Positions 8,311-56,720 of a stretch of DNA of 64,000 nucleotides are shown piece after piece. The notes under the pieces are model-generated. The model searched no databases. It was not told the DNA's origin and saw only the letters and a program-made list of their open reading frames with translations. Source of the DNA: a virus (taxonomy: Duplodnaviria; Caudoviricetes); IMG/VR virus record IMGVR_UViG_3300042508_000526; one strand, 5' to 3'. Numbering within the stretch: the first letter of the stretch is position 1; every line of letters starts with the position of its first letter. The position numbers and the translations under genes are program-made.

Positions 8311-10209
8311 TTATGCTGGCGTACCGAACGACACTTCACTCGTCACGACAGCCGCATGCCAACGAAGCGTGGCGTTACTTAAACCCGTAACTGTGATAAT
8401 TAAAGCCTCGTTCGTGTCATCAGCGGTCAGCGCTACCGCAGCATTATCCATACCCGTGTCATACCAGCGCTCAGACGTGACTGTCCCCATAAGCGCAGTA
8501 TTGTTTGAGTTGTCGCGCCTGATAGCGCCGCGCAGTGTCCACGCAGCCGCTTTGTTATTTGTAGAGTCGTATGCTACTACTTTAGCTTCAAACTGCAATA
8601 CTGTTTGAGCGACCAGCGTTAGCCGTTCGTTTGCGACTGTTGGGCCTAGAAAAATCTCGGCGGGCGTGCTTGAGGCCGTGGCGCCGCGATAGTTGTAAAT
8701 CACGGCGCGGGCATCGCCGCGGTTGGCAAACTGGCCGGCGCCGGTTACGTGCAGACCCTGCATCGTAACACGAGCCCGTTCAGTGCCGGAGGAGCCAAGC
8801 GTAAAGCGGACAAAATTGCTCGCGACCGTGTTGCTCCACACCGAACCAATATCAACGCTTTGCGACGAGCTGCGCAGTACTATGTCGCCGTTTTGTCCGC
8901 GACATTGAATTGTCGCGCTGCCGCTTTGAAAAGTTAAATGGCCGGAAGTGTCTGTTGTAATGTACGCGTATGTGTCTCCTTGCGGGGACGCAAAATACGC
9001 GCGACCAAACGTCGAGGTCGTATTGCGAAAATACGCGTAACCGTTTACGTCAAGCACGTCGACTGGCGTAAGTGTGTTTACACCAAGCCGCCCGCCCATT
9101 ACGGCCATAACGTTGTTTTGCGCCAGCGTGCGGGCAGTGGCGTCAAGGCTGACGCCAATGCTACGCTGCCCCGAAACGGCCATCGCAGCGTCGCCAATTT
9201 CGATGTTTCCAGTGCCCGCCCAGTTAACAAAAACACTGCCATTAGAGTTTGTCGGGTTTATCGTGTTGCCGTCAAACCGCAGATTGTCGATGTTGATTTG
9301 ACCGGTGACGTTCAGCGCTGACCCGTCAAACGTAAAATTGCTACTACCAGCTAGCACGCCAGAAGAGTTGTACTGCACTTGCCCGCTAGAGCCGGCTGGA
9401 AACGCGCTGACTGTAATCGTGCCCGTCGTGCCGTCAGCCACCACAGAAATGTTCGTGCCGCCGACGAGGTCATAGCTTGTGCCGGGCGTTATCGTGCCGC
9501 TTACCTTTAAATCGCCCACTACGTCTAGAGGCGCTGTGGGCGCAGCCGTGCCGACACCCACATAACCGTCATCTCGCACAGTGAGCAAAGGCGCTAAAGA
9601 CGAATTGACAACAGTAAGAGCCGTCGACGCGGAAGTTGCGCCACTGCCGAAAATGTGCAACCGGGAACTCGGTGTTCCTCCGATTCCGATACCATTTAAA
9701 TAACCGTAAACAGTCAGCAAATTGTTGTAAAAAGCTGCCGAGCCAGAGTTAACAGTCAAAGCCGAGACAGTGGCATCAATAACTGAAAATGCGCCATTTA
9801 CGTCGAACGAATTGTTTACCGAAGTATGCGTGTGCGCTGCCGGTGTAAACTCTGTCGGCTTGTTTGCAATTGCGTCCCACTCTGGCGTGACATCTGCTAT
9901 TTCGACATAACTCGCCGCTAACGTTTTGTCGCCTGCGCCTGTGTACACCCATCTCCGCCCGTCAGTAGTTGTGACAAGCGAACCTTTTTCGATATCCGCC
10001 TGTTGGCCGACCGTTAAAGCCGCAATTCCGCCGGTAGAAAAAAGTTGATTAGATGCCGCCGACGCGTACGCTAGCGCATTCCACGCAGTTACCCCGTCGC
10101 CAAATTTGAATTTGCGGGTATCGCTTTCAAGGCACAGTTCTCCAGCCGCGAGCGTTGGATTTACCAACGCCAGATCTGCTGCCGTACCGCGTTTTAATTG
10201 AATGTCCAT
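8311..10209 (-). CDS. Tail fibre with Mtd_N-like N-terminal anchor
   Basis: N-terminus IQLKRGTAAD...NPTLAAGELCLESDTRKFKFGDGVTAWNALAY matches the major tropism determinant N-terminal domain. GIGIGGTPSSRLHI and GYVGVGTAAPTAPLDV shaft repeats follow. Confidence 0.8.
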   Translation of the reverse strand: MDIQLKRGTAADLALVNPTLAAGELCLESDTRKFKFGDGVTAWNALAYASAASNQLFSTGGIAALTVGQQADIEKGSLVTTTDGRRWVYTGAGDKTLAASYVEIADVTPEWDAIANKPTEFTPAAHTHTSVNNSFDVNGAFSVIDATVSALTVNSGSAAFYNNLLTVYGYLNGIGIGGTPSSRLHIFGSGATSASTALTVVNSSLAPLLTVRDDGYVGVGTAAPTAPLDVVGDLKVSGTITPGTSYDLVGGTNISVVADGTTGTITVSAFPAGSSGQVQYNSSGVLAGSSNFTFDGSALNVTGQINIDNLRFDGNTINPTNSNGSVFVNWAGTGNIEIGDAAMAVSGQRSIGVSLDATARTLAQNNVMAVMGGRLGVNTLTPVDVLDVNGYAYFRNTTSTFGRAYFASPQGDTYAYITTDTSGHLTFQSGSATIQCRGQNGDIVLRSSSQSVDIGSVWSNTVASNFVRFTLGSSGTERARVTMQGLHVTGAGQFANRGDARAVIYNYRGATASSTPAEIFLGPTVANERLTLVAQTVLQFEAKVVAYDSTNNKAAAWTLRGAIRRDNSNNTALMGTVTSERWYDTGMDNAAVALTADDTNEALIITVTGLSNATLRWHAAVVTSEVSFGTPA

Positions 10210-10216
10210 AGCGTTA

Positions 10217-12517
10217 TTAATTACTAAGCTTCTTTAGCGCAAACGTACCAACGACCGTAGGATACACTGCAGTCCATGTCGTGTCAGATCCGATTTGCGT
10301 CCATGTCGTCAGATTTACGTTGTCGCCTGTGCCTAAATTTTTATTTGTATTTGTACCGACCACGTATAACCGACCCGCGCGAATAGCGCAAGCGCTCGAA
10401 TAGCCCGCCGAAGCAAAAGTCCAATCAGTGTCTGTGCCTACTTGCGTTGGCGTGCTGGTGTTAGAGGGCAACGCGCCCAGCGTGCCCGCACTTGCGCCAA
10501 ACGCGTACAGCCCGCCGTTACGAATACCAACTACCAGCCCGCGACCACCGCTGATACTAGTCCAGCCAGAACCACTACCGGCTACCTGCGTGATTACGGC
10601 GTCATAAGAAATTGAATACAGCAGCCCGTTGCGAATGCCGTAGATAGTAGCCGGATTAATAATGTCTACCGCAAGATGCGTCCAGCCGCCGCTATCGCCA
10701 GATTGAACGGGCGTCCAACGAACTGTCGCAAAGCTAAGGCCCCACAAATACAAGTCGCCGTTTCGAATGCCGGCGACCATGTATATGTGCCCCGTTACCG
10801 CCGTCCAACCGGTTAGATTTCCTACCTGCGTCGGCGTCGCCGCATTAAGTGCGCTTTCGCCGAGGCCGAGTTGCGCAAACCCGTTATCACCCCAGCTGTA
10901 CAAGTACCCAGAACGAATAGCAAACTTTGCGGCGTACGTGCCGTCTGAGGTAAGGCCGACGTACGTCCAGTCGTCTAAATAGCCGATTTGTGTCGGCGCA
11001 AATCGCCGCTGATTTTGCCCGTCGCCTAAGTTGTTCCATGTGGGCTGCCCCCACGCATACAATTTGCCGCCAGCTACGCCGATAACATAAGTATCGGCGA
11101 TAGTGTTTGTTTGCGGAATTGCGAGCATTGACCAGTTATAAGAAACTGGCATGAGCGTAAACGTTGCGTATTCAGTTACAAAATTTTGCCCGGCTTGACC
11201 GTTTGTATTTTCTCCTGTGCCGTAAAGTTTGCCCGCGCGCAAAGCTAGTAAATGCGCGGCACCAGTCGTCGAGGTGGCCCCGCTAGCAGATATGGCAGTC
11301 CAATCTGCGTCTGCGCCAATTTGAGTCATAACGCGGCGGTCAACTACGTCACCAAGACCGAGTTGCCCCTGCCGGTTTGAGCCTATACCGTAAAGACGGC
11401 CCGCGGCTATTCCGACAGCGTACGCGTTACCGGCAGCAATGTGCGTCCACGTCGTCATCAGACCTATTTGAATAGGCGTAGTCGAGACGATGTTTGTGCC
11501 GTTGCTGAGCTGATAGTTAGTGTTAGAGCCCCAGCCGTACAACGATCCACCCGCAATGCCGTAACCGGTCGCATAGCCGGCGGCGACGCTCGTCCAATTA
11601 GATAGCAGACCCACGCGTGTGGGCGAGTTTACTTGACCGGACGCGCTGCCATTTCCAAGCCGGCCGGACGTGGCTAACCCCCAAGAATAAAGTTGGCCGT
11701 TTTTAATTGCCAAAATATAGCGATCGCCAACCGACACAGCCGACCAATCTGTGTCTGTGCCAACCTGTGTTGGCGTAGTGATTGTGGTGGTCGTCGTGCC
11801 GTCACCTTTCTGCCCGTTAGTGCCGGCACCCCACACATAAAGCCTGCCGCCGCGAATAGCCGCAGAGTTTGAACCGCCGGCGGCCACGTGAGTCCAGTCT
11901 GTAAAAGACCCAATCTGCACAGGCGACAGAACGTCAGTCGAGTTGGCAACACCGTTGCCGATTGTCCCGCTGACGTTATCGCCCCACGCAAAAAGCGCGC
12001 CGTTTTTAATCGCCAGCGTATGGTTTAAACCCGCACTAACAGCTGTCCAGTCACTGTCGGTGCCCAGTCGCGTCGGGCTGTTTATTGCAGTTGTAGTGCC
12101 TTGCCCGTGGCGCCCGTCAGAGCCAGTGCCCCACGTATAGAGCGCGCCATTAAGAATAACGCACGACCACGTGTTACCAGCCGCAATAGCCGTAAAAGTA
12201 ATGCTGTCAGCAAACGTCGTAGTTTTTGAAAGTTGCGTAACTTGCGTGACACGACCATCCGCTGAAATACCGCTATTATTAGACCCGGCGTAAAACAAGT
12301 TGTTTGTAGTTTGCACTACGCCGCCGTCAATGCTGCCGACAATAGAGTCGCCCGGAATCTTTATGTGCGGCAAATTCTGATAAGGCGTAACGCCGTCTCC
12401 AATCTTTAATAGATTGGTGTCTGTCTCGTAGCAAAATTCGCCGGCGGCTAAAACAGGATTTAACGTTTCCAAACTCGTGGAGTAGCCGCGCCGCGTTTTT
12501 ATTGTTGTAGTAGCCAT
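10217..12517 (-). CDS. Mtd_N-anchored RCC1-repeat (beta-propeller) fibre
   Basis: IKTRRG...NPVLAAGEFCYETDTNLLKIGDGVTPY followed by about 13 repeats of LYxWGxNxxGQLG...PTQ(I/V)G...W..(V/I)(S/A)AG. Confidence 0.85.
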   Translation of the reverse strand: MATTTIKTRRGYSTSLETLNPVLAAGEFCYETDTNLLKIGDGVTPYQNLPHIKIPGDSIVGSIDGGVVQTTNNLFYAGSNNSGISADGRVTQVTQLSKTTTFADSITFTAIAAGNTWSCVILNGALYTWGTGSDGRHGQGTTTAINSPTRLGTDSDWTAVSAGLNHTLAIKNGALFAWGDNVSGTIGNGVANSTDVLSPVQIGSFTDWTHVAAGGSNSAAIRGGRLYVWGAGTNGQKGDGTTTTTITTPTQVGTDTDWSAVSVGDRYILAIKNGQLYSWGLATSGRLGNGSASGQVNSPTRVGLLSNWTSVAAGYATGYGIAGGSLYGWGSNTNYQLSNGTNIVSTTPIQIGLMTTWTHIAAGNAYAVGIAAGRLYGIGSNRQGQLGLGDVVDRRVMTQIGADADWTAISASGATSTTGAAHLLALRAGKLYGTGENTNGQAGQNFVTEYATFTLMPVSYNWSMLAIPQTNTIADTYVIGVAGGKLYAWGQPTWNNLGDGQNQRRFAPTQIGYLDDWTYVGLTSDGTYAAKFAIRSGYLYSWGDNGFAQLGLGESALNAATPTQVGNLTGWTAVTGHIYMVAGIRNGDLYLWGLSFATVRWTPVQSGDSGGWTHLAVDIINPATIYGIRNGLLYSISYDAVITQVAGSGSGWTSISGGRGLVVGIRNGGLYAFGASAGTLGALPSNTSTPTQVGTDTDWTFASAGYSSACAIRAGRLYVVGTNTNKNLGTGDNVNLTTWTQIGSDTTWTAVYPTVVGTFALKKLSN

Positions 12518-16284: not shown

Positions 16285-16781
16285 TGCAGAACTCCGTTTT
16301 GGATATCATTTAAAAACAGCACAGCAATCTCGCTGGCTCTACGGTAACCTTCACGCACGCCGCTCTGAAATTGCAGCTCCCCGGCCGGCGCACTTTTCGT
16401 CGGCAGGTCGGCAATAGTCGCGAGCGCCGCAATAAACTTGTTACGCAATTTTCGATATTCCGCAGAATTTACTATAGCGCCGCGCTCTATGCTGTTTGTT
16501 GGCGCTACGATGTTTGACGCTAAGGGTGCAGCCGCGCATAAACGTTTAAGTGATTTTGTAATACACGTCAGCGAGTTGAAGTCTACAAAAGTCTGCGGCG
16601 TATTTGGCACGTACCGCTGCGCTAACTCATGTAAAAGTATACATAATTCACGCAACTCTTCTTTAATGCCCGCGTCCCCCGAAAGCTCAGCTTCTTTTCT
16701 CTCGGCGCGATGTTTTACGGCCTGAACAAAACCTTGACGATTCTTTTGCCGTGCAAGCATTTCGGGCGATAGCGATATCAC
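16281..16781 (-). CDS. Hypothetical protein
   Basis: 166 aa, 4-nt overlaps on both sides. Confidence 0.65.
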   Translation of the reverse strand: MISLSPEMLARQKNRQGFVQAVKHRAERKEAELSGDAGIKEELRELCILLHELAQRYVPNTPQTFVDFNSLTCITKSLKRLCAAAPLASNIVAPTNSIERGAIVNSAEYRKLRNKFIAALATIADLPTKSAPAGELQFQSGVREGYRRASEIAVLFLNDIQNGVLQ

Positions 16782-17401
16782 TGAGGAATCCTTTCCTGTT
16801 GGGACCGAAGACTAGAGAACAACTCGTACACCTCGCTGTGTGTCATTTCCACGGGTTGTAGCGCGTTGATCACGTGCAGACGGGCGGCGGCTAGCTCGTG
16901 CCCGGAGAAGCGCATATAGGCCGCGCGCATCCGTTTACGGTCTTCTAGGCTGCGGCGCTCATATCGGTCTCGCGGCTGGCCGACCCGCGTGGCAGCGGTT
17001 TCAGGATCTAAATCCAACAGCACGCACAGATCCGGCGAAACATTGGACGTACCTTTAAATATCTGAAGAATCAGGTCTGGATCAACGCCATTGATCTCGC
17101 CCTGATAAACCAGCGTCGACAGCAGCCAGCGATCGCAAATAATGACTTTACCGGCAGCCTGCTGCTCCAAAATGTACGCTGCCAACTCGGCTCTAGCAGC
17201 AGAAAAAAGAAGCATCTGCGCCATAACAGAGATAGGCGCGTCGTTATGCAGCAAGATTTGACGAATAGCCGTCCCGATTTTTGTCGTCCCGGGATCGGCT
17301 ACTAGTTCTACGGCAACGTTTTCTTTTTGAAGACGTTGCGCGAGCATACGAGCCTGCGTTGTTTTGCCGGCGCCGTCAATGCCCTCGAAACAAACAAACA
17401 C
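16778..17401 (-). CDS. tmk: Thymidylate kinase
   Basis: FEGIDGAGKTTQ P-loop, LLFSAARA, ICDRW, PDL..LLD.DP motifs. Confidence 0.95.
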   Translation of the reverse strand: MFVCFEGIDGAGKTTQARMLAQRLQKENVAVELVADPGTTKIGTAIRQILLHNDAPISVMAQMLLFSAARAELAAYILEQQAAGKVIICDRWLLSTLVYQGEINGVDPDLILQIFKGTSNVSPDLCVLLDLDPETAATRVGQPRDRYERRSLEDRKRMRAAYMRFSGHELAAARLHVINALQPVEMTHSEVYELFSSLRSQQERIPQ

Positions 17402-18464: not shown

Positions 18465-19508
18465 TCAAACAAGCTTCAACAACGTTTGCCAGCCAAGATC
18501 GAAAGACTTTCGACGCGCGGCCAAGTTGTAGTTCACTCGTTTATTTAGGTTGTCAATGTGAATGGGTTCAGCAATCATTGTCTGCAATACAGTCATTAAA
18601 CGTTCGTAGTCCGGCGCCGCGTGGGGCACGCCGTTTTCGTCGTAATCTACCCGCGTTTTAACAAGTACGCCATTGGCGTCCTGATAAATAAAGTCAACTT
18701 GCGGCGACAGCGCAAACGACAGAACAGGCGTGCCGCAAGTAATTGACGTCAACCCGCACAAACCGTAGTTGTCGCACTCGGCCGGGAGCAGCGTGATATC
18801 GTGCGCTGTGTACATCGCAGGCCGCTTGCTTAACGGCGTATTACGGATCAGCTTCACGCGGCCGTTCGTTCTGCGGCTGAGCCGTTGGAAAAATTTGGCG
18901 ACGGACGGCGCGAATCGGCTAGACGTAATCGCAACAGTGAGCTGCGCTTCCGGCATACGTTCAAATATGTAACTAACGAACGCTAGAAACTGACTATTAG
19001 CGCAGCGCGCATTACGGTCAAACCACGGCAAAAAAACTTTGATCTGCTTGTGGTTTACTGATTTTGTTTTTTTTACAACCGGCAATCCGGTATCGAACGG
19101 AATCATCGTAACGTGTTTGATCTTGTAAATCTTGCCAAACAGCTCGCGGGCTTCGGCTGTCATGGCAATCACGTGATCAACACGCTGCATAACCTTGCGA
19201 AAAGGTCGTACAAGATCTTGCCACATAGGCACGATGATCGTGCGAATGCCGAGGCGCTTCGTGTAATTCAGCGTGTCCATTTTGGGCGGATGCGTCCAGA
19301 TAATCGTCGTGTAGTCTTTGGCCCACGATGAGTATCGCCGCTTTTTCTTGTGGCACACTACACCATCATGCGCCACGCGTAGCTTTGCCGGATCGGTATC
19401 GGAATAGATGCCATACTCTACGCCTGACGCGCGTAAAAAATCGGCTAGCCTAATAGTAAAATACGCCTCATCGCAGTGGGCGTAATGTGTGTATATGCCA
19501 ATTCGCAT
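18465..19508 (-). CDS. GT-B fold (GT4-like) glycosyltransferase, divergent
   Basis: N-terminal MRIGIY and DHVIAMT; C-terminal DITLLPAECDNYGLCGLTSITCGTPVL...DFIYQDANGVLV. Confidence 0.7.
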   Translation of the reverse strand: MRIGIYTHYAHCDEAYFTIRLADFLRASGVEYGIYSDTDPAKLRVAHDGVVCHKKKRRYSSWAKDYTTIIWTHPPKMDTLNYTKRLGIRTIIVPMWQDLVRPFRKVMQRVDHVIAMTAEARELFGKIYKIKHVTMIPFDTGLPVVKKTKSVNHKQIKVFLPWFDRNARCANSQFLAFVSYIFERMPEAQLTVAITSSRFAPSVAKFFQRLSRRTNGRVKLIRNTPLSKRPAMYTAHDITLLPAECDNYGLCGLTSITCGTPVLSFALSPQVDFIYQDANGVLVKTRVDYDENGVPHAAPDYERLMTVLQTMIAEPIHIDNLNKRVNYNLAARRKSFDLGWQTLLKLV

Positions 19509-34755: not shown

Positions 34756-36135
34756 CTACTTAGCAGAGGCACGCGCGCGGGCACGAGCCAGAATATCCGC
34801 AGAATCGCGCTTCTGCGCCGCTGGGGCCGGAGCCGCAGGAGCAGGAGCGGAAGCAGAAAACATATCCGCAACACTATCCGCCGCTTCCGGCGAGATCTCA
34901 CCAGCTACTTCGGGTTGCGGGTCCCACGGCGCAGGAGGATCAGCTGGAGGAGCCTTAGCCGCCGCCTTCGGCTTTGCCGCGGGCTGCGTGCGCTCCATAT
35001 GCTCTTCCTCAAGCTCTTCGACATCAACGCCGGCACCAGTAAACGTTGCCGTGCTCTTCGGCACCGTACGCAGGTACTCGGGGAACTCGCGCCACGCGAA
35101 ATCCAGCGCCTCACGCGGGAAAGCTGTGGCTAACAACTCAGCCTGCTCTTCGTAGGTCGGAACCCACAGATAATCGTCCCAAGACTGCGTCTCGGCAACG
35201 ATCTTGTCGGCGTACGGCTCAAGAGAAACCTCTTGACCCTGATACGTGTCGTGCAGCACGGCGAAGTGCGTGAAATCACTGCGCGACTGCGGATAACCGA
35301 CAACAAACTGCGCGTCCTTCTTGTTACTCAGCGCAAACTTCGGGCACTGGAACGTTGCCGGTCCGGCCGCAGACGTCGCGATGACGTTCTTGGAGCCGCT
35401 GACAAAGTTATCAGGCAGGAAGGTGATAAGCTTGGCAGGGCCAAAAGACAGCATATCGCCGCTCATGTACTCGCCAGTGCTTTCGTCACGAACGCTGAGC
35501 GCTGAATACAACGCCTGTGTGGCGCTGGTCTTCAGGCCGATAACACGAGCGCGACGCTTTTCTTTTTCATCGTCAGAAAAAGCGCCAAGAACAACCTGCC
35601 CGTTCTCGTCAACGTAAACGACGCTGGCGGAAATGAACAGCGTCTTCTCAGGCTTCTTCAAAGACCCGATGTGCGAATCACGCACAAAGTTCTTTGACAA
35701 AAGATCGCTGAAAAGCCGGCCAATACCCGGCGTATCCTTGTTGTCCCACGCGGCCTTGCGCAGAACGTGCAGCGGGCTCTCGTACAAATTGACTTCAGGA
35801 TTGCCGTCATGAATGATGAAGCACACACCGGGATTTCCAACCCAGTGGGCGCAAGTCATCAGCCGGCTCCAGTCGCCAAACGCGACGCCGTCACGGCCTT
35901 CGCGCAAGTTAACAAACTCGCGGGAACCGCCGGAACCACCCTCTTCGTAGATGGGTAGTAGGCGTAAACACATGCCGTTATCAAGAAGCTCTCGACCAGC
36001 AGCAACGAGAACGTTGTTCTGCTTGCCGTAAGCGTAACGGCTCTTCTTACCTCCGGTCCCGCCAGAGCCGATGTTATGGGCTTTGCGGTACTCGGGATCA
36101 ATAGCGGCTAAATTTTGCGCGCTGTAACGTGGCAT
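34756..36135 (-). CDS. Probable single-stranded DNA-binding protein
   Basis: Lies between polymerase and recA; LRLLP motif as in gp32-type SSBs; Ala/Pro/acidic tail ending SADILARARAR. Confidence 0.5.
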   Translation of the reverse strand: MPRYSAQNLAAIDPEYRKAHNIGSGGTGGKKSRYAYGKQNNVLVAAGRELLDNGMCLRLLPIYEEGGSGGSREFVNLREGRDGVAFGDWSRLMTCAHWVGNPGVCFIIHDGNPEVNLYESPLHVLRKAAWDNKDTPGIGRLFSDLLSKNFVRDSHIGSLKKPEKTLFISASVVYVDENGQVVLGAFSDDEKEKRRARVIGLKTSATQALYSALSVRDESTGEYMSGDMLSFGPAKLITFLPDNFVSGSKNVIATSAAGPATFQCPKFALSNKKDAQFVVGYPQSRSDFTHFAVLHDTYQGQEVSLEPYADKIVAETQSWDDYLWVPTYEEQAELLATAFPREALDFAWREFPEYLRTVPKSTATFTGAGVDVEELEEEHMERTQPAAKPKAAAKAPPADPPAPWDPQPEVAGEISPEAADSVADMFSASAPAPAAPAPAAQKRDSADILARARARASAK

Positions 36136-36209
36136 AAAAACCTTTCTATAATTGAGGGCCCAATTGCCCGTGTGAACTGCCTGCATCATAGCAGACAAAA
36201 TCGGCTTGT

Positions 36210-39200
36210 CTAGCCCTTCTCCTCACAAAACCAATCGACCCCCAAACCCCGGGCATTTGAGGGTTTGAGGTTTTCTCCCCAGTGGAAAAATACGTCACGG
36301 CTCATACCGAAATGGTACGGACCCGCGCCTTCGATCAGTGTGCCGTCCAGCCGCCGTGGCCAGAACGGCACGCCGTCAACCATGCAATACGGAATAACTT
36401 CTTTGTACAACCGTTCAGCATGCTCTAGTGGCGCGATCAATACAATCGCGTCGTGGATCTGTAACGCGATTTTGTAATCAATATCCGTGTGCTCTTCGCG
36501 GTAGCGATAGAAATTGTTGAGCGCAATAGACACCGCGTCAGCTACACCGCCCTGAATAGGGAAGTTCTGTGCTTGCCGCTCCTGCTCTCCACGGACCGCT
36601 TTATCGCGAGTCGCTACAAATCTGCGAAAACGCCCATATGGTCCCATGAGCCAACCGGGATTTTGCGACCGCTGCCGGCACTCCGCTAGAAACGTTTTCG
36701 TCCCCGGATAGGAACTGAAATACGCGTCGATCATCGCCTGACACTGCTCAGGCGTGACTTCGTGACCTTCCTCTTTGCATTGCCGCGCCAACGCTTCTGG
36801 CCCGCGGCCGTACGGGATTCCAAAGTTTACGTTTTTTGCCGCAACACGGAGTCCCTTTACGCCTGCGTCAGCCATACCCTGCTTTGTCGGCACAACGCCG
36901 TCCAAATGGAATGTCTTAACGGCCTGCTGACTATGGATGTCGTAATGGTCGGGGTGATCCTCTGGCAGAAGATTACGCCGAACATGTTCAATCATATTTT
37001 TGTCTTGCGACAACCACGCGAGGACCGCCAGTTCCGCACCAGTGAGGTCCGTTTCGATACCAACGCAGCCCTTGGGTACACAAAGGATCGAGCGGACGGG
37101 ATGTTGATATCGGTCCTTTCCGAGGATGCGCTTGTAGTCGTCTTCGCGTCGCGAGCTGAGATTTTGTAGCGGAGGCCGTGAGCTGCTGGCGCGCCCAGTT
37201 TCCTTGGTTTGAAAGAGGTGAGTACGTACTTTACCGTCGGCGTGAACGCAGCCGACAAGACCTTTTTCATACGTGTAATTACCGTTGTCATCTAGCTCCA
37301 ACTCTCCTTCTTCGTTTGACGCTGGCTTGCGCAGCACAGACTGCAGCACCTGACTGATGAACTTGTAGTCACGAATTTTGGCCGCGGTCGAGTTGCCGTG
37401 CCCAAGAATGCCAAGGCTTTCTTTGTCTGTGCTGGGCGTTGCCGTGTCCGGATTAATCCCGCGCCAGCTCATTTCGGCCCACAACACCGGCCGCTTACCA
37501 GTCGTTTTAATCGGCCGCATATTCAGCAGCCGGGCGTCTTCTGGTATTTCCGGCGTGTTTGTATACCTGTCAGCAAACTTCCGCCCGAACAACGCAATCG
37601 CTAACTGCGGCTGAGATTTTGGATTGAAATTTGGCCAGTTAAGCGCATCGCGGATCTCTGCCAGCAAACGATCCTGCGTGTTCATAAACAGCGTCGTTAG
37701 CTCGTCGGCGCGGTTGCGATCCACAACCATGCCGGTCATTTCCATCTCCAGAAACGCCAGAGAAGAATTGTGCGCCGTCCAATACGGCAACCAGCAATCG
37801 TGCCCGGTAGAAGACCGAGCCAAAAGCCCGTCTTTGCCATTTGTTCCGTAGAACCGCATGGCAATGCGACGAGTTACGTCAACGTCGTATGAGGCGTACG
37901 GATGCAGCACGTGCGCCGGGCAGTTACCGTAGCCGCCCATCTCGCCGGCTTTGAGCTTGTGTTCGGTGCGGTACTTTTTCTTCCAGTTATCCAACGGCGT
38001 CCAGTATGTAGGCGCCGTTGTAAACCGCATTGAGCACTCGTCTAAGCCATATCGCGCACACTCGTTTACGGCGTGATACATGAGACTCGTGTCCCATCCG
38101 CCGTGGGTGCGATCGTCGGGGTCTTGCGCGGGTGCGTACTCCGGACGTACATCAACACCAAAATTAATAAGCCATGGCAAGTCAGCACGGAAAAAGTGAC
38201 CACCCACACGTACATGTCGTGTTGGCGTGCTTTTGAGCAGTCTAGTGAGTTGAACACGCGCTGCTTCCAAATCCGGCTTAAACGCATCTGCGCCCCCTTG
38301 ATGGCGCAAAACAATAGTGCGCGCCCACTTGTCTTTGTTAGATATTTGAACCGTCCGCAGATAGGCACCGTCTTCTGTCGGATACTCGCCGTGCCACTCG
38401 CAGTCGATTGCGATGATATTGGCATTCGGGTCTGGATCTGCGAGCATCTCGTTGACCACTTCTGTCAAAGCGGCTTCGGTATAAATATCAGCGTGATCAA
38501 CAACTTCTTCGTCCTGCATCTCATTGTTAATCAGCGCTTTAAACCGTCGAATCTGCCCAATAAAATCTTCAGTGACTTCAGGTTTGCGCAGCACAAACGC
38601 CGGGTGCATCACAGATAGCGCTTTAATTTCTCGCTTTTCGCCCTGAATGTCGTACGCCGGGATTTCCAGCACACGACCGGATAAACCAGTCACAGCACTG
38701 TTTGTGCGCATGACAGCTTTCGTGGCCTCATTGCCAAGGCACAAAATGTAGTCAGGCTGAACAATCCGCAATTCCTGTTCGAGCAGGATTGCGCAATTTT
38801 TCAGCCACGAAGCCGGCACCGCTGTGATGTCATCTGTCGGCGGCGCAAACTTGCAGGCGAACGTGACATACCAGCGCTGATATTCAGCTTCAGATATGCC
38901 GCATTCTTCAAGAATGCCAGCTAGCGCGACCATGCCGGGACCAGCAGTTGCGCTAAGGCGCTCCATCTCGTAGTAGCCGGGAATCTTGCCGACCACCATT
39001 ACACGAGCGCGCGCCCGAGGACCGAAAGAGTCTTCAGACAGCTGCGCGCCGCGTTCACCCCAGACGTGCCCCGGTAGAAACCGAACAGTAATCGGCTCTT
39101 TCGAAGACTTGTGCGAAATTGGCAGATGAAAATCTGCTTTGTACAGCGCGTTGCGATACAGCGTTGTCAGATGCGTACCAACTGGTACCGCTTTCTTTTT

Positions 39201-39386
39201 CTTTGTTTGCGCCTCGTCGATGTCATCGCCAAGCGCTATAGCATGCGCAATGAAATCCGGACCGGCCGGCGGCATTCCCGGTTCCGTTAGCGGAATAAGC
39301 GGAAACGCGGCGGCCGTAAACTCTTCGCTGTTGGGATCGTACAGCGTTTGTGTTAACCGATGCGTTAACGAAATACCCGCAGTCAT
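36210..39386 (-). CDS. polA: Family A DNA polymerase with N-terminal UDG-like domain and 3'-5' exonuclease
   Basis: UDG-like VVGKIPG..E, YVTFACKFAP, ILCLGNEA, MHPAFVLR; Exo IAIDCE, HFFRADL, YASYD; Pol TGRASS, DLTGAEL, KNVNFGIPYG, NFPIQG, QIHD. Confidence 0.93.
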   Translation of the reverse strand: MTAGISLTHRLTQTLYDPNSEEFTAAAFPLIPLTEPGMPPAGPDFIAHAIALGDDIDEAQTKKKKAVPVGTHLTTLYRNALYKADFHLPISHKSSKEPITVRFLPGHVWGERGAQLSEDSFGPRARARVMVVGKIPGYYEMERLSATAGPGMVALAGILEECGISEAEYQRWYVTFACKFAPPTDDITAVPASWLKNCAILLEQELRIVQPDYILCLGNEATKAVMRTNSAVTGLSGRVLEIPAYDIQGEKREIKALSVMHPAFVLRKPEVTEDFIGQIRRFKALINNEMQDEEVVDHADIYTEAALTEVVNEMLADPDPNANIIAIDCEWHGEYPTEDGAYLRTVQISNKDKWARTIVLRHQGGADAFKPDLEAARVQLTRLLKSTPTRHVRVGGHFFRADLPWLINFGVDVRPEYAPAQDPDDRTHGGWDTSLMYHAVNECARYGLDECSMRFTTAPTYWTPLDNWKKKYRTEHKLKAGEMGGYGNCPAHVLHPYASYDVDVTRRIAMRFYGTNGKDGLLARSSTGHDCWLPYWTAHNSSLAFLEMEMTGMVVDRNRADELTTLFMNTQDRLLAEIRDALNWPNFNPKSQPQLAIALFGRKFADRYTNTPEIPEDARLLNMRPIKTTGKRPVLWAEMSWRGINPDTATPSTDKESLGILGHGNSTAAKIRDYKFISQVLQSVLRKPASNEEGELELDDNGNYTYEKGLVGCVHADGKVRTHLFQTKETGRASSSRPPLQNLSSRREDDYKRILGKDRYQHPVRSILCVPKGCVGIETDLTGAELAVLAWLSQDKNMIEHVRRNLLPEDHPDHYDIHSQQAVKTFHLDGVVPTKQGMADAGVKGLRVAAKNVNFGIPYGRGPEALARQCKEEGHEVTPEQCQAMIDAYFSSYPGTKTFLAECRQRSQNPGWLMGPYGRFRRFVATRDKAVRGEQERQAQNFPIQGGVADAVSIALNNFYRYREEHTDIDYKIALQIHDAIVLIAPLEHAERLYKEVIPYCMVDGVPFWPRRLDGTLIEGAGPYHFGMSRDVFFHWGENLKPSNARGLGVDWFCEEKG

Positions 39387-55690: not shown

Positions 55691-56230
55691 TCAAGTTTCC
55701 TTGACGAAAATGCCTTCGGGCGTCAACCGGCCTTTGCGATCTTTAATCGTTTTGTACGCCTCTTCAAGACACAGCCGCAAACTCATCGCGGGGTCGTACA
55801 GGTTTGCGCACAGAATAAGCGTAACAAGTACGTCGCCGATCCCGTCGACAACACCGTCGCCGTCATCTTTCAATAACGCGTCGGCTAATTCGCCCAGCTC
55901 TGACATCGTTTTCAGCAGCTGAACTCTTGGGTTGCTGTTCGGGATGATGTGCCGATCCCGCGCCCACTGAATGACTTTTTCTTCCAACTCGGTAAATGAT
56001 GGGTGCATGTTGTGCTTCTCCTTGTGTTTTTCTGCGGCATGCTCCAGCGCTTGATCATGCGCTGACAATAATTCAAGTGCGTAAAGCCTGAGCTGTTTTT
56101 GCAATTGCTCACGCTCTGGACGCAGCAAATTTAATAGCGCCAAAACGCTACGCATTTCCTGCGCTGACAACTCGCCCATATGCAAGCGAATAGCTTGCTT
56201 GTCGCCGGCCCATATTGGTTCAAGATTCAT
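55691..56230 (-). CDS. mazG: MazG-like nucleotide pyrophosphohydrolase with N-terminal extension
   Basis: WARDR...QLLKTMSELGELADA...DGIGDVLVTL...AYKTIKDRKG. Confidence 0.85.
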   Translation of the reverse strand: MNLEPIWAGDKQAIRLHMGELSAQEMRSVLALLNLLRPEREQLQKQLRLYALELLSAHDQALEHAAEKHKEKHNMHPSFTELEEKVIQWARDRHIIPNSNPRVQLLKTMSELGELADALLKDDGDGVVDGIGDVLVTLILCANLYDPAMSLRLCLEEAYKTIKDRKGRLTPEGIFVKET

Positions 56231-56720
56231 TTACGTTTTCTTGCTCGGGCGCGGGTGTTTCTTCCGGCGGATCAACCGCGTCAGACATGCTCTCTAATTT
56301 GTTGCGTTGCAGTTCCATACGTTCGCGTACAAGTGCAATGCCTTGTGCGGCATCAGCAACCTCGACGTACGGTAATTTCTCTTTCAGGTGCTCCCACTTT
56401 GTCGGGCCTACGCCGGCAACATTAATCTCGCCCGGCGCTGCCTCCGCAAAGTCTTCCAGCAGCGCCACAGCCGTAGCGTCTTGCCGCGTTTGGAACACAA
56501 TAATGTTGTTGTCTTTGTCGGAAAAGAATTTAACGCCGGTATCGTCGCAGATAACGTAACGAGCGGCTTCTTCGCCGGTATCGATATAGCGCACCGGCTT
56601 CATGTAGCTGTTGGCGTGCTTTGACGCTTCTGGCGAACAGCACCGTTTAAATTTCTGGCCACTGCCGCACGGGCAACGGTCATTACGTTTTACAAAGCTG
56701 TTGCGACGAATCGTTGTCAT
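56220..56720 (-). CDS. SEC-C motif protein
   Basis: KRNDRCPCGSGQKFKRCC. Confidence 0.85.
   Translation of the reverse strand: MTTIRRNSFVKRNDRCPCGSGQKFKRCCSPEASKHANSYMKPVRYIDTGEEAARYVICDDTGVKFFSDKDNNIIVFQTRQDATAVALLEDFAEAAPGEINVAGVGPTKWEHLKEKLPYVEVADAAQGIALVRERMELQRNKLESMSDAVDPPEETPAPEQENVNES

Follow-up and report, generated by a model that had tools for sequence, protein, structure and literature searches.

The 64,000-nucleotide stretch of DNA analyzed here (hereafter the window), which is part of the Caudoviricetes virus record IMGVR_UViG_3300042508_000526 of IMG/VR, encodes on its minus strand a family A DNA polymerase (PolA) that carries in its N-terminal part a fold resembling the uracil-DNA glycosylases (UDG) of family 4. 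This locus raises the question whether the fused domain still removes uracil from DNA and, if it does not, what it contributes to the polymerase. The results suggest, with a probability of about 0.6, that the first 295 residues are a pseudo-glycosylase whose task is to hold and guide the single-stranded template, or to brace the fork, within a replicase for which no clamp, clamp loader or ligase was detected in the two complete relatives searched. According to the proposed mechanism, a family-4 UDG fold would have lost its Fe-S cluster and the residues for recognition and excision of uracil, and would have retained the loops by which it grasps the backbone of the DNA.

The order of the Pfam domains and a full-length AlphaFold2 (AF2) model showed that the protein has the architecture of the UDG-PolA fusions, with UDG fold, exonuclease and family A polymerase in one chain. 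The N-terminal extension is followed by the UDG fold (PF03167, residues 121-270, E 3.8e-12, 46.9 bits at a cut-off of 24.3), the 3'-5' exonuclease (DNA_pol_A_exo1, PF01612, residues 301-509) and the polymerase (DNA_pol_A, PF00476, residues 648-1001, E 5.9e-46), and the whole protein was assigned to the PHROG family phrog_17 "DNA polymerase" (E 9.5e-100). An earlier note, made from the sequence alone, had pointed out a UDG-like domain on this polymerase. A profile of 52 relatives searched against the Protein Data Bank (PDB) matched UdgX (E 1.4e-18) and UDGa of Thermus thermophilus (Tth UDGa, 1UI0, E 4.9e-17) as well as the family-4 enzymes from S. tokodaii and T. maritima, and gave no match to the family-5 UDGb at E <= 1. 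The AF2 model of residues 1-300 (predicted local distance difference test, pLDDT, 91.2; predicted template modelling score, pTM, 0.89) was matched by Foldseek to 4ZBX (E 1.4e-11, TM 0.73), 1UI0 and UdgX, with E values of about 1e-11 to 1e-10. Superposition with VIA-align yielded Z scores of 19.2 for UdgX, 18.9 for the T. maritima UDG (186 of 191 residues aligned), 15.4 for family 5, 14.4 for the phiLo polymerase and 8.4 for vaccinia D4. The homology of the domain to the family-4 UDGs is secure and far beyond chance.

The extension that precedes this fold is confidently modelled as well (pLDDT 86-96). It partly matches the N-terminal helices of family-4 UDGs, the VIA-align alignments beginning at model residue 40 for UdgX and 24 for the T. 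maritima UDG, and contains roughly 80 additional residues. In aligned relatives P39, G42, F45, Y82, G106 and H107 are near-invariant, and residues 1-120 were not matched by any cultured phage in the collection searched. A search for stand-alone or split forms of the domain returned two short proteins, which are probably fragments; the domain is essentially never found alone.

The remainder of the chain is predicted to be a working replicase, because the catalytic residues of the exonuclease and of the polymerase are invariant or nearly so. Among 121 homologues, D328, E330, D432, Y497 and D501 of the exonuclease as well as motif A (D780, E785) and motif B (R847, K851, F855, Y859, G860) of the polymerase are invariant, and motif C (H978, D979) is conserved in at least 90%. 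Foldseek with the full-length model (pLDDT 89.5, pTM 0.81; a confident single body) retrieved Klenow and Bst PolI at E 1e-26; the hits were PolA structures only and were uninformative on the placement of the UDG-like domain.

The uracil pocket of Tth UDGa is composed of E41, G42, E47, F54, N80 and H155, plus N89 (Xia et al.; PMC5387724). These residues were mapped onto the window domain through a phmmer alignment to UdgX, which is ungapped across motif A. The motifs GKIPG, YVTFACKF and HPA are located exactly where the earlier note had read them, and phmmer aligned them with the corresponding motifs of UdgX (Table 1). Comparison of the mapped positions revealed that five of the seven mutationally tested residues are replaced: K134 stands for the family-4 Glu E41 (E41Q, 888-fold loss of k2/Km), I135 for G42 (a Gly or Ala in family 4; G42D, 89-fold), T147 for F54 (F54A, 17-fold), F176 for the uracil-reading N80 (N80A, 44-fold) and T184 for N89 (N89A, 7-fold), and the two that are kept are E140, corresponding to E47, which blocks thymine (E47A, about 120-fold), and H261, corresponding to the catalytic His H155 (H155S, about 2500-fold; PMC5387724). 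Lys134 is found in 117/121 close relatives, in all 52 IMG/VR relatives (down to 26% identity) and in 139/151 representatives of the wider family described below. Position 140 is Glu in 92 of the 121 close relatives, and Glu or Asp in 149 of the 151 family representatives. In motif B, Arg267 is retained together with His261 (H in 105, P262 in 121 and R in 103 of 121). Three of the four cysteine positions of the Fe-S cluster are lost: the first 120 residues contain no cysteine, as the earlier note had stated for the N-terminal ligands, and Phe180 occupies the place of the "KC" cysteine. Cys198 is present in 117/121 close relatives. The family-4 UDGs (1UI0 of Tth UDGa, 4ZBX from S. tokodaii and 1L9G from T. 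maritima) and UdgX (6AIL) therefore share with the window domain the overall fold, the GPxG loop, E47 and, in motif B, HPA...R, whereas motif A, the Asn and Phe of the pocket, N89 and the complete set of four Fe-S cysteines, which belong to an active family-4 UDGa, are not found in the window domain. The R-loop of UdgX (KRRIH), whose His109 cross-links to the abasic site, is absent in the phmmer alignment, the loop in the window domain being about six residues shorter and lacking a His. As five of the seven pocket residues are replaced and the R-loop with its His109 is absent, excision of uracil at a useful rate is unlikely, judging from the sequence.

Table 1. Location in the window of the polymerase gene, its domains and pocket motifs, and of the genes considered in connection with DNA modification. 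ORF, open reading frame.
Feature	Position	Strand	Residues	Basis or remark
Polymerase gene (UDG-like, 3'-5' exonuclease, family A DNA polymerase)	36210..39386	(-)	1058 aa	ORF list and translation
N-terminal extension	39027..39386	(-)	1-120	folded, conserved, zero cysteine
Family-4 UDG-fold core	38517..39026	(-)	121-290	PF03167, profile against PDB, Foldseek, VIA-align
Motif A, GKIPG	38976..38990	(-)	133-137	phmmer against PDB sequences aligns UdgX GEQPG
Glu140 (Tth UDGa E47)	38967..38969	(-)	140	retained; ungapped register with UdgX
Thr147 (Tth F54, uracil-stacking Phe)	38946..38948	(-)	147	Phe lost; site variable in clade
YVTFACKF	38847..38870	(-)	173-180	aligned to UdgX YVTNAVK (phmmer)
Cys198	38793..38795	(-)	198	aligned to UdgX Cys; sole Fe-S ligand position of four still Cys
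Motif B and DNA-contact loop, HPAFVLRKPE	38577..38606	(-)	261-270	HPA (261-263) at 38598-38606; UdgX HPS
3'-5' exonuclease domain	37827..38498	(-)	about 297-520	PF01612; acidic motifs intact
Polymerase palm and fingers	36357..37469	(-)	about 640-1010	PF00476; Foldseek
Tmk	16778-17401	(-)		E 2.7e-40
GT1-like ORF	18465-19508	(-)		PF00534 E 3.7e-5, below cut-off
MazG-like pyrophosphatase	55691-56230	(-)		PHROG E 2.5e-32

The domain is under strong purifying selection and is not decaying as a whole. Among close relatives, the UDG core had a ratio of non-synonymous to synonymous substitution rates (dN/dS, NG86) of 0.055. The N-terminal extension showed a value of 0.086, the polymerase one of 0.041 and the exonuclease one of 0.029. 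The sites of the domain that are conserved in the 121 homologues include K134, P136, G149, Y173, T175, P211, C216, G218, H261, P262 and R267, and they cover the GPxG loop (149-151), which binds the DNA backbone, and the HPAxVxR loop (261-267).

A profile search of 1.84 billion cluster representatives yielded 258 clusters (50% identity) at E <= 1e-30, none near a cultured phage, which we refer to as the Lys-type family; nearly all of the best 150 of the 258 are PolA with lengths of 1040-1950 aa, and the match includes the extension as well as the UDG core. Among the 151 representatives, Asn176 is found in 121, His261 in 124, and Phe, Leu or Met at position 147 in 141, and positions 140, 147, 176 and 261 belong to the most conserved sites of the domain (5th-18th entropy percentile). 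The conservation in the window clade is different: K134 (12th percentile) and H261 (26th) are still constrained, whereas positions 176, 147 and 184 lie at the 53rd, 82nd and 85th percentile, respectively. A FastTree phylogeny based on the exonuclease and polymerase part only placed the window protein in a clade of 111 sequences (support 100), none of which has Asn at position 176 or an aromatic residue at position 147. Position 176 is occupied in this clade by F (79), A (10), Y (8), S (5) or H (3), and position 147 by T, I, L, M or V; the sister lineages carry N176 and F147. The loss thus took place in two steps. The motif-A Glu was replaced by Lys first, in the ancestor of this large family of uncultured phage PolA, and the uracil-reading Asn and the stacking Phe were lost later and once, at the base of the 111-member clade of lake jumbo phages, with drift at these sites afterwards. 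The earlier note had overlooked that the diagnostic exchange of Glu for Lys defines this much larger family, in which the pocket is mostly kept elsewhere. No description of a Lys-type (GKxPG) family or of its two-step decay was found in the literature; the Lys as the mark of a 258-cluster family and the single loss of Asn and Phe at the base of one clade are new here.

If the sites that contact the base drift freely, the pocket is hardly adapted to one particular base, modified ones included. Together with the replacement of five of the seven Tth residues, these variable base-reading sites support well, without proving it, the statement of the earlier note that the domain is not a uracil glycosylase. 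An alternative, which we regard as improbable, is that the domain is an active DNA glycosylase or glycosylase/AP-lyase in which K134, H261 and E140 have been rewired for a base other than uracil or for abasic sites in the template. Such rewiring would agree with the near-invariance of K134 at all three levels of relationship, with the retention of E140 and H261, and with the wider family, where the whole pocket (E140, F147, N176, H261) is kept among the most conserved sites. Moreover, UDGs of families 2, 3 and 5 function without the family-4 Glu. However, to our knowledge no characterized UDG family has a Lys at this position, and the variation at 147, 176 and 184 in the window clade would be unexpected for a pocket devoted to a single substrate. 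A phage ligase that could finish the repair was not detected in the complete relatives either, PolX and apurinic/apyrimidinic (AP) endonucleases not having been searched for.

Two further observations concern the members of the family. Cysteines 178, 198 and 216 (nt ~38739-38855) are present in 116, 117 and 121 of 121 sequences of the lake clade, despite the incomplete set of Fe-S ligands; a disulfide or another metal site is conceivable for them. P0127, P0128, P0130, P0137, P0140, P0227 and other Lys-type members are 1430-1950 aa long in comparison to the usual ~1050, a length that hints at inteins or at large insertions within the polymerase.

Among cultured phages, the closest full-length matches were the polymerases of SPO1-like Bacillus and Lysinibacillus phages (21-23% identity, residues 124-1008), and the closest matches to the domain only were those of Pseudomonas phage PMBT14 and its relatives (30-32% over the core alone). 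The motifs aligned with GKIPG, YVTFACKF and HPA read QENPF, YYTSIVKY and HPN in SPO1, QENPY, YYTAVVKC and HPN in CP-51, and GDNPN, YYTPAVKC and HPA in PMBT14. As the position of the Asn is held by Ser in SPO1, Ala in CP-51 and Pro in PMBT14, a point that the earlier note had missed, it is the Lys and not the loss of the Asn that sets the window gene apart. The SPO1-like enzymes (SPO1 gene 31, CP-51, Lysinibacillus phages) have the same order of domains as the window protein and likewise no Asn at this position; in contrast to the window protein with its Lys and its extension, they keep the motif-A Glu (QENP) and are devoid of the 120-residue extension. They belong to phages with 5-hydroxymethyluracil (hmU) in their DNA (PMC10201439). 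The Ser (SPO1 gene 31) or Ala (CP-51 gp104) is thus found in UDG-PolAs that are described as retaining their catalytic residues, and in the SPO1 enzyme both the N-terminal CxxC and the "KC" cysteine are missing as well. The UDG-PolA gene of PMBT14 is directly preceded by genes for a nucleotide pyrophosphohydrolase, a thymidylate synthase and a dCMP deaminase, a compact cassette that looks like one for nucleotide modification.

Loss of the UDG catalytic residues has been described for the N4-like UDG-PolAs of cluster #17, which have a family-4 fold N-terminal to exonuclease and PolA; for other UDG-PolAs, no clusters had emerged at that time (Czernecki et al., 2023; PMC10201439). The N4-like enzymes thus share with the window protein the fusion and the non-conserved catalytic residues, for which a processivity or structural role was proposed. 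They differ from it in size (PolA of about 800-900 aa as opposed to 1058 aa with the conserved extension) and in their truncated UDG, which is without a helix and a beta-hairpin. In N4 gp39, no motifs are recognizable, whole secondary-structure elements are gone and the sequence is barely alignable, whereas the window domain has a complete fold and retains E47 and motif B. The N-terminus of N4 gp39 is far more degenerate, and tblastn with the domain yielded no match in N4-like phages (Schitoviridae) at E <= 0.01, so that membership in the N4-like group appears unlikely. A relationship to the PolA of the jumbo phages PaBG and "Lupandier", described as having a UDG domain (PMC7412058), was rejected, since the family profile matched nothing in the PaBG genome and the weak UDG-like region there scored about 0 bits against this profile. 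In PaBG gp205 itself, the UDG region reaches 20.8 bits, below the Pfam cut-off, and its motif A reads LDYVP; this region is probably non-catalytic as well.

The SP15-like UDG-PolAs (phiLo, YerA41; PDB 9QHS) offer the only experimental view of where such a domain is located, namely on the 5' template strand. Structures obtained by electron cryo-microscopy for phiLo and YerA41 show the UDG domain touching this strand ahead of the active site and, together with assays, demonstrate that these enzymes excise deoxyuridine (dU) from it there (Missoury et al., 2026; PMC13697223). Their architecture is that of the window protein, and the UDG of phiLo superposes on its model with the Z score given above, although 9QHS matched weakly in sequence (E 1.9e-13 over 180 polymerase residues and E 1e-5 for the UDG domain). 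In addition, the SP15-like enzymes contain a C-terminal domain and two large inserts, and PolX and a ligase are encoded alongside them, whereas no ligase was found in the relatives of the window. The acidic residue in motif A of the active SPO1- and SP15-like UDG-PolAs is Lys in the window protein. The holoenzyme of a replicative polymerase also includes a UDG fold in the case of poxvirus D4/E4, placed on the template in front of the active site; D4/E4 differs from the window domain in being a separate, enzymatically active subunit of UDG family 1 that acts with a family B polymerase (PMC13697223).

By analogy with the solved UDG-PolA structures, the window domain would most probably guide and hold the template strand just ahead of the polymerase site. 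Without removing a base, it could in this way promote processivity, strand displacement or the coupling to the helicase; K134 would then contact a phosphate or a sugar at the mouth of the former pocket. Both parts of this proposal have precedents. A strand-displacement role was suggested for UDG domains without catalytic residues (Missoury et al., 2026; PMC13697223), and the N4-like polymerases with a dead UDG domain were proposed to use it as a processivity module (Czernecki et al., 2023; PMC10201439). The role in processivity that the earlier note had considered is thus plausible, and it is not new, being already in print for the N4-like UDG-PolAs (PMC10201439; PMC13697223). Searches with hidden Markov models (HMM) in two complete relatives, G002 (204.6 kb) and G003 (205.0 kb), revealed neither a beta clamp nor a clamp loader, and also no ATP-dependent ligase; PolX and AP endonucleases were not part of this search. 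The absence of clamp, clamp loader, ligase and dUTPase from these relatives means that neither a detectable clamp nor a repair kit of the SP15 type accompanies the polymerase there.

Several points weigh against template holding by an inactive domain. The negative results on clamp and ligase come from HMM searches of two relatives and not from the genome of the window. In the UDG domain of YerA41, the motifs are MUG-like (VLIGY, MYSL) and both the Glu and the His are missing, yet dU is excised (PMC13697223), so that an inference of inactivity from motifs can be wrong, and this excision with non-canonical motifs also favors rewired catalysis. Finally, the conservation of K134, E140 and H261 in the clade goes beyond the obvious needs of a backbone grip.

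It is also conceivable, though in our view doubtful, that the domain makes no meaningful contact to DNA and instead braces the exonuclease against the fingers or offers the primase and the DnaB-like helicase a place to dock. The polymerase gene is embedded in a replication operon, with the primase (39393-40463) and the DnaB-like helicase (40476-42197) encoded directly upstream, followed by an SF2 helicase and SbcCD, and with a 480-aa ORF and then a UvsX-like recombinase downstream. A purely structural function would be in line with this gene order, with the confident modelling of the polymerase as a single body, with the high conservation of the extension (G42, Y82, G106, H107), which is unique to the Lys-type family, and with the firm sandwiching of the UDG between exonuclease and polymerase in all UDG-PolA models (Czernecki et al.; PMC10201439). 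A brace alone, however, would not need the conserved GPxG (149-151) and HPAxVxR (261-267) loops or the conserved K134 at the pocket mouth. The 480-aa ORF (34756-36198 (-)), located between the genes for the polymerase and the recombinase, has no Pfam or PHROG match; its position suggests an unrecognized replication accessory protein, e.g., a single-stranded DNA-binding protein or a processivity factor. In IMG/VR, relatives with 65-85% PolA identity are contigs of 198-205 kb, one of them with terminal repeats.

For the Lys-type family as a whole, we consider a broader and rather unlikely scenario, in which these proteins are an undescribed subfamily that does something new on the template. They might sense uracil by read-ahead, binding it with no cleavage, in a manner comparable to the uracil pocket of the archaeal family B polymerases, or they might be Lys-dependent glycosylase/lyases, and the window clade would represent a later stage that has abandoned the reading of bases and keeps only the DNA grip and the Lys. 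With the favored reading of the window domain as a non-catalytic template holder, the family would illustrate at scale an outcome opposite to that of the UDG-PolA fusions in which a link between replication and the repair of uracil was recently demonstrated (PMC13697223). The domain is retained under strong selection in hundreds of lineages of uncultured jumbo phages, after two datable steps that dismantled the uracil pocket, and these lineages may provide a natural test case for a non-catalytic use of the UDG fold on a polymerase, for instance in template handling or in processivity of a 200-kb genome without a detectable sliding clamp. As a concept, the dead UDG domain of a PolA has been published before, and for this reason no new field is opened by these results. 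They do call for caution with the automatic annotation "uracil-DNA glycosylase family 4" on many Lys-type proteins.

The earlier note had further suggested that the domain reads a modified base, citing two glycosyltransferases, Tmk and MazG nearby. Tmk and MazG were confirmed; the search of about 40 ORFs with Pfam and PHROG for glycosyltransferases near the polymerase left a single, sub-threshold GT1-like protein 17 kb away, and with distances of 16-20 kb from the polymerase gene none of the three can be called nearby. A domain that recognizes hmU or glycosylated pyrimidines when they are part of the phage DNA itself would nonetheless fit the presence of these genes in the window, as well as the occurrence of SPO1-, SP15- and PMBT14-type UDG-PolAs in phages with thymidine-modification genes. 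Yet many phages with unmodified DNA also encode Tmk and MazG, the glycosyltransferase gene adjoins genes for tail-fibre-like proteins, and the pocket residues are not fixed within the clade, 147, 176 and 184 being among its least conserved sites. The two complete relatives (84% and 68% PolA identity) each encode Tmk and two or three GT1-like proteins, and HMM searches found no ThyA, ThyX, dUTPase or TGT/DpdA in either of them; a dCMP deaminase was found in G002 and not in G003. The route by which hmU, hydroxymethylcytosine and their glycosylated forms are usually made depends on a hydroxymethylase of the ThyA type and is thus missing. The suggestion of a modified-base reader is therefore unsupported, and we consider it very improbable. 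Owing to the absence of ThyA, ThyX, dUTPase and TGT from both relatives, a context of thymidine hypermodification or of 7-deazaguanine was rejected. The polymerase domain is the sole UDG domain in each of these two genomes.

The weak glycosyltransferase may have a target other than DNA. Tmk and the glycosyltransferase are encoded a few kb upstream of two tail-fibre-like proteins with Mtd_N domains (8311-12517 (-)), one of which also has eight RCC1 repeats. The MazG ORF overlaps the start of a gene for a 166-aa SEC-C motif protein (55691-56720 (-)).

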